Below the pieces are notes generated by a model. It was not told the DNA's origin, searched no databases, and saw only the letters and a program-made list of their open reading frames with translations. DNA of 64,000 bases from Candidatus Kaiserbacteria bacterium. Its GTDB lineage: Bacteria; Patescibacteriota; Minisyncoccia; Phycocordibacterales; UBA2100. This document shows, one piece after another, positions 28,642 through 29,892 of the stretch (its first letter is position 1; each line of letters starts with the position of its first letter). The position numbers were made by a program, and so were the translations under genes. The stretch is taken from the NCBI GenBank assembly GCA_016432285.1, contig CP066682.1, positions 439,072 through 503,071 of the forward strand. The letters run 5' to 3'.

Positions 28642-28796
28642 CATCGGTATACATTATTCACGTTCTTCCATATTCCGTTTTGGCACGCCATTACGGATTG
28701 GAGATTCTAAAGCCCTCGCACAAGAGCGTGGGACTTTTGGATTTATTTTGGGCGTAAAAGCCCTAAACGAATTAGAGATTCCGCAAAATACCAGTT

Positions 28797-29690
28797 CTAA
28801 GATTTTTGAAAACTCACAGCGATCGCAGCAATATCATCCGATTTTTTATAGCGCGGGTACTTCCAGCAGTTTGGATCTGTGTCTTCGGTTGCTCGAATGT
28901 GATCGCGCACTTTCGGTAACCCCCCTTCCAAAAATAGATTCACTGTTACCGAGAAGTCATCGTTCGCTTGCGGATCCTCTTTCGGAATGAGCAGGCCGTC
29001 AGTAAAAATAAGTATGTGCGCTACATTTTCGAGCGACTCTTTTCCTGTCCGAATGAACTTTGATACATCGGCTTGTCCATTGATGACTCCGAACGTTACG
29101 TTTACATCCTGACGAAGCTGACGAATATTGCCGTCCAATTTACCTCGAATGTCCTCTGTTTTTGTATCAGCTAACTCTTTCCAAAGCGACATAATTCCCC
29201 GATCATGGTCATAGTCATCTTGAATCAGTTGTTTAAAAGTCCCATCTGTATATATAACAATGACGAGCGAGTCTGCGACTTGCGCCCATTCAAATTCTTT
29301 TTCTGAATGGTTGACATCAACTACGGCCATCGTCGTACCCCATCTGTTCTCTTTTTTTGTTATATCGATTCCCTTGTCTTCCATGACACTTTCAATGCGT
29401 TTGTTAGCTTCCATCGCGGTTTGAGTCAGCGAACCTTTGAACGTTTCAAAGACTTCCTTAGCAATATTTGCAGCGAGATATCCACCGCTTTTTCCATGTT
29501 CGTCAACGTATCCTGCCCGACTCGATACGCCATCAAAAACACCGAACCGAGTCGCACCGATTGTCATTGCGTCTTCGTTGATTTTACCAACGCCTTTGTC
29601 AAAAAGTTGTTCTATATGCATATGCATACGCTCGTTAGGAGCAATTCGATCTCGTCCGGTATTTTGCTTTCCCTCGAAAGAGTTGGTCAT
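28797..29690 (-). CDS. PP2C-family (PPM) serine/threonine phosphatase, in an AT-rich islet
   Basis: FGVFDGVSS metal-binding motif plus later acidic motifs (DDFSV, FTDGL) of the PPM fold. SD-like AAAGG 7 nt upstream. GC content is much lower than the core genome. Confidence 0.6.
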   Translation of the reverse strand: MTNSFEGKQNTGRDRIAPNERMHMHIEQLFDKGVGKINEDAMTIGATRFGVFDGVSSRAGYVDEHGKSGGYLAANIAKEVFETFKGSLTQTAMEANKRIESVMEDKGIDITKKENRWGTTMAVVDVNHSEKEFEWAQVADSLVIVIYTDGTFKQLIQDDYDHDRGIMSLWKELADTKTEDIRGKLDGNIRQLRQDVNVTFGVINGQADVSKFIRTGKESLENVAHILIFTDGLLIPKEDPQANDDFSVTVNLFLEGGLPKVRDHIRATEDTDPNCWKYPRYKKSDDIAAIAVSFQKS

Positions 29691-29892
29691 GGTTCGCCTT
29701 TCGCATCAAGATAAACTTTACCACTTGTAGCGATAAGGGCTATTTGATGAACTTTTTTAAGAGGTTCTAACTTCTCCCCGCAAACTGGACTAGACGCTCA
29801 TCGATTCGAGTGTTTTTGTGATTTCGGAAAAATCGAGTATATATGCCGTATCATCGACTTCGTGCAAAGAGGTTCTAACGTCATTCATTAGT

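Follow-up and report, generated by a model that had tools for sequence, protein, structure and literature searches.

Genomic islands linked to tRNA genes start at a tRNA 3′ end, have a foreign composition and are missing in relatives, and they lie in regions where several further slots vary and tRNA 3′ ends are duplicated. The locus described here, in a 64-kb stretch (64,000 nt; hereafter the window) of contig CP066682.1 from a Candidatus Kaiserbacteria bacterium, is likewise built. In contrast to known islands of this kind, it spans only 1.25 kb and carries one cargo gene, which encodes a PPM/PP2C-family phosphatase, with no integrase or other mobility gene. Its junction repeat is 6 nt long, and the long repeat at its edge is the flank of another tRNA. 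We put at about three in four the probability that the locus is a single-gene PP2C cassette, recently acquired by horizontal transfer into the 3′ end of tRNA-Ala(CGC), and that its arrival parted this tRNA from a shared terminator flank. The features of the region are listed in the table.

Table. Features of the tRNA-Ala(CGC)–prs region, in positions of the window.
Feature	Position	Strand	Evidence
tRNA-Val-CAC	28222-28296	+	ARAGORN, Rfam RF00005
tRNA-Pro-CGG	28327-28401	+	ARAGORN, Rfam RF00005
tRNA-Pro-GGG	28401-28472	+	ARAGORN, Rfam RF00005
tRNA-Ala-CGC	28571-28642	+	ARAGORN, Rfam RF00005
Left junction TCCACA, 3′ end of tRNA-Ala(CGC)	28638-28643	+	Sequence; repeated at 29894-29899
Low-GC inserted cassette	28644-29893	.	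GC 0.43; tetranucleotide z 4.6; missing in relatives
Non-coding stretch, tRNA-Ala(CGC) end to phosphatase stop codon	28644-28796	.	Sequence
PPM/PP2C-family phosphatase gene, 297 aa	28797-29690	-	Pfam PF13672, AlphaFold2, Foldseek, alignment
Non-coding region upstream of phosphatase	29691-29893	-	Sequence
41-nt copy of tRNA-Ala(GGC) 3′ end and flank	29894-29934	+	Exact repeat of 33534-33574
Degenerate continuation of post-tRNA-Ala element	29935-29993	+	Alignment, sequence
DUF2975 gene, first	30064-30549	+	Pfam E 4e-29
DUF2975 gene, second	30546-31025	+	Pfam E 3e-30
HTH_26 regulator gene	31031-31234	+	Pfam E 6.5e-26
prs (ribose-phosphate pyrophosphokinase), native right-hand neighbour of tRNA-Ala(CGC)	31325-32281	+	Pfam; synteny
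tRNA-Ala(GGC) and full ~145-nt four-hairpin element	33465-33690	+	ARAGORN; tRNA itself 33465-33538

The tRNA genes at the left edge (28222-28642; Rfam scores of 55–76 bits) form a native cluster that follows PBP2-GreA, and the same four are found by synteny in ten relatives (L005–L010, L107, L109, L110 and L112). In all ten, PBP2-GreA is followed by the same six tRNAs; PBP2 is 61–70% and prs 72–84% identical to the proteins encoded here, and none of the ten has PP2C, DUF2975 or HTH_26 at this tRNA locus. In four of them the distance from tRNA-Ala(CGC) to prs is 21 nt (L110), 45 nt (L005), 86 nt (L112) and 166 nt (L109), as against 2.7 kb here. The pattern that the earlier note named as contrary to its proposal, the same gene at the same position and with the same composition in all related genomes, is not what these ten genomes show. 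The nearest relatives available belong to other species (prs ≤84% identical), and a strain whose site is empty did not turn up, which leaves the gain without a firm date. Taken whole, the tRNA cluster is a hot spot: the accessory genes in its other slots vary from genome to genome. A DoxX gene at 27.7–28.1 kb, considered as a further insertion, was withdrawn, since L107 and L112 have DoxX at the same place.

Composition changes abruptly at the tRNA. GC content is about 0.60 to the left of 28642 and 0.43 across the cassette, and the drop begins at 28644, only 1–2 nt beyond tRNA-Ala(CGC); the earlier note had likewise described a sharp fall directly 3′ of the tRNAs. In 300-nt windows, GC stays at 0.41–0.46 over 28650-30300, compared with 0.58 for the whole window; GC3 of the phosphatase gene is 0.42 vs 0.70–0.78 for PBP2, GreA and prs. 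By tetranucleotide distance the cassette ranks first among 252 sliding 1.25-kb windows (z 4.6), and its non-coding flanks are as AT-rich as its gene. Two marks of tRNA-linked genomic islands are found together here, an unusual composition and the lack of the DNA at the corresponding position of related genomes. The cassette measures 1250 nt, or 1256 nt including one TCCACA copy; it has a terminator-like hairpin at 28715-28732, downstream of the phosphatase stop codon, and two 16-nt direct repeats in the upstream region (29759-29774 and 29867-29882, 15/16 identical). The right edge had been placed at a repeat that is indeed present at 29894-29934, but low GC does not end there: it runs on at about 0.50 to about 31250, across a second accessory module.

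This module fills 29994-31290, has a GC content of about 0.50, and consists of two DUF2975 genes and an HTH_26 gene. The DUF2975-HTH_26 unit is missing at this site in relatives, and it is found in other contexts in other Patescibacteria. A search of the literature on CPR tRNA islands and on DUF2975 returned nothing pertinent. Because relatives lack all of the accessory DNA that separates tRNA-Ala(CGC) from prs here, and every part of it lies below genomic GC, the phosphatase, terminator copy, DUF2975 pair and HTH gene might be taken for one island that arrived in a single event. We think this unlikely. The parts differ in GC (0.43 vs 0.50) and in GC3 (0.42 for the phosphatase vs 0.59–0.68 for the module), a host-type terminator element separates them, the DUF2975-HTH unit occurs without PP2C in L114–L116, and DUF2975 was never a PP2C neighbour in the homolog loci examined. 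The foreign 2.7-kb block is a composite of the PP2C cassette and the DUF2975-HTH module.

An islet of foreign composition that is bounded by repeated or widely shared sequences, a tRNA on one side and a 41-nt repeat on the other, could also have been threaded into the contig from another organism or strain during assembly. Two independent Logan assemblies from different runs make this improbable. They cover 28587-29894 and 28587-29923 with 0 mismatches and recover both junctions: in each, 56 nt of this genome's tRNA-Ala(CGC) run on into the islet, and the islet runs on into the 41-nt repeat. Their ends fall only at points where a 31-mer graph is bound to break, and the tRNA/islet junction is not among these. 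The terminator sequence is moreover lineage-specific, so that any other host one might propose would itself be closely related.

The distribution of homologs bears on the origin of the gene. The five closest, with 75–84% amino acid identity, occupy five different neighbourhoods, including malic enzyme/NUDIX (L003), tRNA-Ser/AIR synthase (L004), DUF3298 (L106) and other genes (L026). Each has a GC content of 0.43–0.45 whatever the GC of its host, with flanks at 0.47–0.59. Outside the coding sequence no DNA similarity to these homologs was found, except for about 29 nt directly before the ATG that are conserved in L026; the stretch between the tRNA and the phosphatase stop codon likewise showed no similarity to their flanks. 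An HTH gene remnant upstream of the phosphatase, as in L004, was sought by tblastn without result; the 'HTH' call in L004 itself begins inside a tRNA-Ser. With the gene missing in relatives and its homologs dispersed over five neighbourhoods at GC 0.43–0.45, gain of the phosphatase by horizontal transfer, as the earlier note proposed, is well supported.

The steady GC of about 0.44 in several hosts can be read instead as a constraint intrinsic to the gene, and the phosphatase as an ancestral gene kept here, its low GC owed to selection on the gene, and lost in all sampled relatives. This is very improbable. It requires loss in ten relatives, four of which have a tRNA-Ala(CGC)–prs spacing of 21–166 nt, and it leaves the equally AT-rich non-coding flanks and the different contexts of all the closest homologs to be explained. 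Homologs in low-GC Parcubacteria sit at the GC of their own genomes, down to 0.30–0.37, which argues that the GC of the gene follows its host over time.

We now turn to the right junction. The 41-nt sequence at 29894-29934 consists of the last 5 nt of tRNA-Ala(GGC) and its terminator, with a bidirectional terminator hairpin at 29911-29928, and it corresponds to the head of the structured element that follows tRNA-Ala(GGC). The earlier report of a duplicated tRNA-Ala 3′ end plus terminator holds insofar as the repeat and terminator are real, but their source is the flank of tRNA-Ala(GGC); the adjacent tRNA-Ala(CGC) shares only TCCACA with the copy (10/12 with one gap). A further TCCACA occurs at 29984-29989, in the degenerate continuation of the element. 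In L009 and L010 a homologous 3′ flank follows both tRNA-Ala genes, and in L109 the two genes likewise share a flank, of different sequence. Because of this pattern, the copy at 29894 is most simply seen as what would have been the original 3′ flank of tRNA-Ala(CGC), which the insertion has displaced. In four relatives the terminator element is lacking from the tRNA-Ala(CGC)–prs interval, so that the element, the DUF2975 module and PP2C may have arrived in any order. No Rfam family matched the islet, the post-tRNA element or the region downstream of the L004 gene. A perfect 41-nt direct repeat with one copy overlapping a tRNA 3′ end might suggest attL and attR of an element at tRNA-Ala(GGC), with 29935-33533 as the mobile DNA, but this least probable of the alternatives is ruled out by conserved core synteny between the copies (prs, tRNA-Arg and a Heavy_Cys_CGP gene, in an order kept in relatives), the partial copy lying upstream rather than downstream of the intact tRNA, the lack of an integrase, and the presence of shared tRNA-Ala 3′ flanks in L009, L010 and L109 without such an element.

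The earlier note also held that the phosphatase, in contrast to the core genes, uses a Shine-Dalgarno site. Core genes indeed show no enrichment, the mean anti-Shine-Dalgarno duplex energy at 67 gene starts being −2.72 vs −2.66 kcal/mol for background. The phosphatase, however, has only a GAAAGG 7 nt before its ATG, a weak and non-significant site (−4.5 kcal/mol) at the 23rd percentile, equalled by 23% of random positions and absent from the closest homologs. We have dropped the argument.

How the cassette entered can be outlined in conditional terms. In the native arrangement of this lineage, prs lies within 21–166 nt of tRNA-Ala(CGC). The cassette may have come from a Parcubacteria-like gene pool of about 43–47% GC, the donor and direction of transfer being those that we infer, and would have inserted exactly at the tRNA 3′ end, leaving TCCACA at both junctions and separating the tRNA from the terminator-bearing flank at 29894-29993 that is common to both tRNA-Ala genes. 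Without the cassette, the junction would read ...CCCTTAGGTCCACACAGACGAAAATACCTGCC... The vehicle may have been an integrative element that targets tRNA genes and decayed afterwards; alternatively, the DNA may have entered by homology-facilitated illegitimate recombination after DNA uptake, anchored in the conserved tRNA or terminator sequence. The att core of integrase-type islands is usually 15 nt or more, 15–50 nt being typical, whereas only the 6 nt of TCCACA are available here. No integrase or recombinase was found by Pfam or motif (regex) searches of 19.8–38.7 kb, in agreement with the earlier observation that none remains, and the phosphatase is the sole gene of the cassette. A junction repeat of this length is no proof of site-specific integration, and no integrase accompanies it. 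Viral carriage was also considered and rejected: no relative of the phosphatase was found in 2.9 million viral contigs, and searches for anti-phage defence and phage families with PADLOC, PHROG and NCBIfam returned no match.

An association with tRNA genes is seen beyond this locus. A co-oriented tRNA lies 16–290 nt upstream of PP2C in 8 of 67 loci, representing 6 independent lineages and 6 different tRNAs, compared with 2.2% among other ORFs of the same loci; the association is only modestly significant (Fisher p 0.03; stricter count 5/65). The phosphatase described here points towards its tRNA, while in the other tRNA-linked cases the gene is co-oriented and downstream. Longer copies of the neighbouring tRNA 3′ end were found downstream of a homolog only in L045 (15 nt). 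One could propose that this subfamily travels as a naked, integrase-independent, tRNA-anchored single-gene cassette between CPR bacteria, and DPANN archaea as well, through DNA uptake and homology-facilitated illegitimate recombination at tRNA 3′ ends or flanks. We regard this proposal as doubtful. If it were true, mini-insertions with duplicated tRNA 3′ ends and the structured tRNA-Ala elements would be traces of the same process, and the phosphatase, instead of being a housekeeping regulator, would act as a niche factor in episymbiotic cells. We prefer the acquired-cassette reading, under which a tRNA hot spot gained a gene by horizontal transfer, an ordinary event.

The cargo itself was characterized by family, fold and alignment. 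Residues 50–238 match Pfam PF13672 (PP2C_2) with E 1.1e-7 and 32 bits, above the gathering cut-off of 24 bits, and the homologs likewise carry PF13672. An AlphaFold2 model (pLDDT 93.5, pTM 0.89) was compared with the PDB by Foldseek; every one of the top 50 matches is a PP2C-type protein (best E 1.7e-13), in keeping with the PP2C fold, whose central β-sandwich has helices on its flanks. Among them are PstP (2cm1/1txo), tPphA (2j86/2y09) and Stp1, with E values between 1e-13 and 1e-11 and probability 1.0; TM scores normalised to the target reach 0.72, and normalised to the query they are 0.55. In a 60-sequence alignment D53-G54, D140, D231-G232 and D285-D286 are invariant, and E39-D40 is ≥90% conserved. 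The metal-binding acidic residues of motif I (ED), motif II (DGxxG-like), motif VIII (DG) and motif XI (DD/DN) are present, as assigned by sequence pattern and not by residue-level superposition. Taken together, the model and alignment indicate that the islet encodes, as had been claimed, a genuine PPM/PP2C phosphatase with a complete predicted catalytic site. The protein belongs to a small subfamily: 1.84 billion proteins searched at E ≤ 1e-30 yield 248 representatives. This subfamily carries an additional helical insert (about residues 155–212) and a conserved C-terminal DPxCWKYPRYKxxDD, and its hosts are mainly CPR bacteria and DPANN archaea.

The enzyme would be stand-alone, soluble and metal-dependent, with phospho-Ser/Thr proteins as its most likely substrate. 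The earlier note had suggested a search for a partner Ser/Thr kinase or anti-sigma antagonist, and none was seen among the neighbours here or beside homologs. Pfam found no kinase domain in the phosphatase's neighbours, six-frame translation of the window gave no HRDxKxxN or DFG motif, and no STAS or anti-sigma-factor gene lies beside the phosphatase or the homologs examined. Clustering of neighbours across 59 homolog loci revealed lineage-specific genes only, with no conserved partner and no kinase; homologs of distant high-GC bacteria have glycosyltransferase and FemAB-like genes beside them, and those of DPANN have archaeal genes for information processing. Since no kinase or other partner was seen, a role as a protein phosphatase would follow from family membership alone, and the label of signalling gene is likewise one that we infer.

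Both the acquisition of genes at tRNAs and PP2C phosphatases that stand alone are familiar, and the locus leaves current views as they are. It offers a clean, well-bounded case of gene gain in a reduced CPR genome, with a tRNA cluster serving as landing pad for small accessory modules, and it defines a small PP2C subfamily common to CPR bacteria and DPANN archaea. In comparison with the partner-switching phosphatases RsbU, RsbX and SpoIIE, the PP2C fold is common to all, and RsbX (3w40) is among the fold matches; sequence matches to SpoIIE are weak and non-significant, and the N-terminal regulatory domain of the RsbU/SpoIIE type is lacking. The adjacent kinase that marks Hanks kinase/PP2C pairs such as the PknB-PstP operon is missing, and in contrast to the PstP, Stp1 and PrpC type the phosphatase has neither a membrane anchor nor a Hanks kinase, FHA or PASTA gene beside it. 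Identity to solved PP2C structures is only 14–20%, with no significant PDB sequence match. The protein shares its fold with the bacterial PPM/PP2C Ser/Thr phosphatases PstP of M. tuberculosis, tPphA of Thermosynechococcus, Stp1 of S. aureus and PrpC of B. subtilis, and like them it is a single catalytic domain of similar size, with its acidic residues conserved in motifs I, II, VIII and XI.

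The four-tRNA cluster that an earlier note had placed beside an AT-rich islet was recovered by ARAGORN and Rfam (Table). Directly past 28642, GC in 300-nt windows steps from 0.52-0.62 down to 0.41-0.46, where it stays up to ~30300; it then runs at ~0.50 up to ~31250 before returning to ~0.62. The mean for the whole window is 0.58, versus 0.43 for the islet (28643-29893), which was the top tetranucleotide-distance outlier of 252 sliding 1.25-kb windows (z 4.6). Its single convincing ORF (28797-29690, minus strand, 297 aa) has a GC3 of 0.42, compared with 0.70-0.78 for PBP2, GreA and prs. 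Given the tRNA placement, the GC drop, the tetranucleotide distance and the GC3 of this ORF, the islet is real and its coordinates hold. The runner-up outlier, 11751-13000 (z 4.15, GC 0.46), contains an ORF (11886-12860, plus strand, 324 aa) which possibly represents another acquired gene, since its composition is deviant (GC3 0.50) and it has no Pfam match. GC also dips, less strongly, at 1-1000 and 21500-23000, the second inside a class II aminoacyl-tRNA synthetase gene.

Coordinates of features in the window and in comparison loci (L005, L009, L010, L107 and L112, relatives with the same tRNA cluster; L045, a PP2C homolog locus; L114-L116, other Patescibacteria)
Feature	Locus	Position	Strand	Detail
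tRNA-Val-CAC	window	28222-28296	+	ARAGORN, Rfam
tRNA-Pro-CGG	window	28327-28401	+	ARAGORN, Rfam
tRNA-Pro-GGG	window	28401-28472	+	ARAGORN, Rfam
tRNA-Ala-CGC	window	28571-28642	+	ARAGORN, Rfam
Post-tRNA-Ala element	window	33539-33690		head copy 29894-29934
Post-tRNA-Ala element	L107	8070-8215		after tRNA-Ala(GGC)
Post-tRNA-Ala element	L009	12453-12720 and 14694-14980		after both tRNA-Ala genes, tandem
Post-tRNA-Ala element	L010	10258-10410 and 12391-12543		after both tRNA-Ala genes, tandem
Mini-insertion	window	32857-32896 vs 32995-33034		tRNA-Arg, 40 nt duplicated
Mini-insertion	L005	12370-12398 vs 12453-12481		tRNA-Val, 29 nt duplicated
Mini-insertion	L112	about 7915-7980		tRNA-Ala, ~34 nt duplicated
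Mini-insertion	L045	3511-3525 vs 3683-3697		tRNA-Arg, 15 nt duplicated
DUF2975 + HTH_26 module	window	30064-31234		
DUF2975 + HTH_26 module	L114	5001-6174		
DUF2975 + HTH_26 module	L115	5001-5700		
DUF2975 + HTH_26 module	L116	68-767		

We compared this site with related genomes fetched via PBP2 (L005-L010, 61-70% identity) or prs (L107, L109, L110/L111, L112, 81-84% identity). All of them have the window's six tRNAs (Val, Pro, Pro, Ala-CGC, Arg-CCG, Ala-GGC) downstream of PBP2-GreA, in differing order, orientation and spacing, and none of these relatives has a PP2C, DUF2975 or HTH_26 gene at the cluster. The distance from tRNA-Ala(CGC) to the start of prs is 45 nt in L005, 21 in L110, 86 in L112 and 166 in L109, as against 2682 nt in the window. 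Far from recurring at the same position and composition in every relative, the islet is clearly missing from them. Other slots are occupied elsewhere: L110 has a 206-aa ORF between tRNA-Val and tRNA-Pro, L110 and L112 carry an acetyltransferase gene near tRNA-Arg, and only the window genome has a P-II-like gene (32354-32833, minus strand; Pfam P-II, E 8.5e-9; phrog_28307, E 3e-12) between prs and tRNA-Arg, a gap of 4-133 nt in the closest relatives (L107, L109, L110). Here, too, accessory DNA has entered at a tRNA 3′ end. Because different slots carry different accessory genes in different genomes, the cluster is a hot spot for small insertions and for rearrangement. Between tRNA-Arg and tRNA-Ala(GGC), an 89-aa ORF (33155-33424, plus strand) is a short homolog of the Heavy_Cys_CGP proteins of 155-162 aa found at the same place in relatives, and may be truncated.

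The five closest homologs of the phosphatase (L106, L026, L004, L003/L027; 75-84% amino acid identity) occupy five unrelated neighbourhoods. Each gene has a GC of 0.43-0.45, with flanks of 0.47 to 0.59, and nucleotide similarity to the window is limited to the coding sequence, except for 29 nt upstream in L026. Homologs in low-GC Parcubacteria match their hosts (0.30-0.43). Such a pattern would be expected if a single gene had spread repeatedly and recently out of a ~43-47% GC pool. Vertical descent followed by loss is hard to reconcile with closest homologs that keep this composition in unrelated surroundings and whose similarity ends at the coding sequence. We consider a chimeric join unlikely: 28587-29894 and 28587-29923 each recur with 0 mismatches in one of two Logan assemblies from separate runs. 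These leave the tRNA/islet junction unbroken; their only breaks, within the 41-nt repeat and within the tRNA, come at points where a 31-mer graph has to break. Synteny, foreign composition and scattered homolog contexts thus bear out the proposed horizontal acquisition at a tRNA locus; the islet is a real, recently acquired single-gene insertion at the tRNA-Ala(CGC) 3′ end, inside the hot spot. In L004, the predicted HTH gene (763-1005) begins within the tRNA-Ser(TGA) gene; its true reading frame is at most ~48 aa, and it is therefore a truncated HTH between that tRNA and the PP2C homolog.

The right edge had been described as a duplicated tRNA-Ala 3′ end plus terminator. Both parts are present, but their source is tRNA-Ala(GGC) rather than the adjacent tRNA-Ala(CGC), with which the repeat has only TCCACA in common: 29894-29934 is an exact 41-nt copy of 33534-33574, the last 5 nt of tRNA-Ala(GGC) and a downstream flank bearing a bidirectional terminator hairpin. 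On the simplest reading, tRNA-Ala(CGC) would once have borne the same 3′ flank, and the 1250-nt cassette would then have entered between the tRNA end and this shared flank; TCCACA stands at both junctions (28638-28643 and 29894-29899). The two tRNA-Ala genes of L109 likewise share a 3′ flank, of different sequence. In the window, the copied flank forms the first part of a ~145-nt element with four hairpins (folding energy -75 kcal/mol, z -6.8), for which an Rfam search returned no family. Sixteen of its 56 predicted pairs still pair despite changes on both sides, and between genomes with PBP2 only 61% identical the last hairpin retains 95-97% identity. The element could be a novel small RNA, a signal for processing or a repeat of the REP type. 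We rejected the segment between the 41-nt copies as a mobile element because prs, tRNA-Arg and the Heavy_Cys_CGP gene keep a conserved order.

Nor does foreign DNA end at the repeat, as had been proposed; that boundary is internal, and a second acquired module lies beyond it. The stretch from ~29994 to 31290 (GC ~0.50) encodes two membrane proteins of the DUF2975 family and a regulator of the HTH_26 type. The same unit, with one or two DUF2975 copies, is found without PP2C in other contexts in other Patescibacteria, so the foreign block next to tRNA-Ala(CGC) is composite. The module moves as a unit among Patescibacteria. Its proteins share 70-80% identity between Parcubacteria, Peribacteria and Andersenbacteria; for DUF2975 this is far above the identity of core proteins, which suggests that transfer is frequent.

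As the earlier note had stated, no integrase remains: none was detected between 19.8 and 38.7 kb, nor any recombinase or transposase, and an att core would be longer than the junction repeat. In 8 of 67 loci (six lineages, six different tRNAs) the PP2C homolog has a tRNA in the same orientation 16-290 nt upstream, and one homolog abuts an RNase P RNA gene. By a stricter ORF-based count, homologs adjoin tRNA genes more often than other ORFs of the same loci (5/65 vs 9/406; Fisher p 0.03). Mini-insertions of 65-160 nt, bounded by duplicated tRNA 3′ ends (15-40 nt), lie right after tRNA genes (Table); some hold T-arm-like fragments, and they look like scars of earlier integrations at these tRNAs. 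A tRNA-targeting element may have integrated and since lost all but one cargo gene, or DNA uptake may have been followed by recombination anchored in a conserved tRNA or flank.

The phosphatase had also been said to use a Shine-Dalgarno site, unlike the core genes. The latter half of this claim stands: anti-SD complementarity at 67 approximate gene starts averaged no excess (-2.72 vs -2.66 kcal/mol background), and a TATAAT-like box precedes the start of many genes by 7-12 nt (e.g., 27117-27134, GreA; 31310-31324, prs), so core genes look SD-less or leaderless. Translation in this genome may be largely leaderless or SD-independent. The contrast itself is not supported, since the phosphatase GAAAGG scores -4.5, a value reached by 23% of random sites, and is not conserved among the closest homologs.

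The encoded protein is, as proposed, a bona fide PP2C-type phosphatase. It exceeds the gathering score of Pfam PP2C_2, and its AlphaFold2 model (pLDDT 93.5, pTM 0.89) has only PP2C phosphatases as top PDB fold matches (PstP, tPphA, Stp1, PppA and RsbX among them; E 1e-13 to 1e-10). Identity with solved structures is just 14-20%, and a profile search against PDB sequences gave no significant match. In a 60-sequence homolog alignment D53-G54, D140, D231-G232 and D285-D286 are invariant and E39-D40 is kept in at least 90% of sequences, which by sequence is the predicted PPM metal-binding pattern. The PPM catalytic domain is intact, and the protein has no other domains. By family membership, its activity is most likely Mn2+/Mg2+-dependent dephosphorylation of phospho-Ser/Thr proteins, with specificity probably set by a helical insert peculiar to the subfamily (around residues 155-212) and by a conserved C-terminal stretch, DPxCWKYPRYK. 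The search for a partner came back empty: no kinase, FHA, STAS or anti-sigma gene adjoins the phosphatase or its homologs. PADLOC, PHROGs and NCBIfam gave no match, and viral contigs held no relatives.

Few proteins belong to this subfamily (248 representatives at E <= 1e-30 among 1.84 billion), its named members belonging to Parcubacteria or Kaiserbacteria, Moraniibacteria, Aenigmatarchaeota, Nanoarchaeota and one Fimivivens. In four metagenome loci (L035, L037, L043, L099), homologs with 47-50% identity have archaeal-type genes around them; on visual inspection alone, the ORFs next to them look like genes for ribosomal protein L21e, for an RNA polymerase subunit and for a Pus10-like protein. 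Such surroundings agree with the Aenigmatarchaeota and Nanoarchaeota annotations and imply that CPR and DPANN share this subfamily across domains. The islet belongs to known kinds, joining tRNA-linked gene gain with the bacterial PPM phosphatases.
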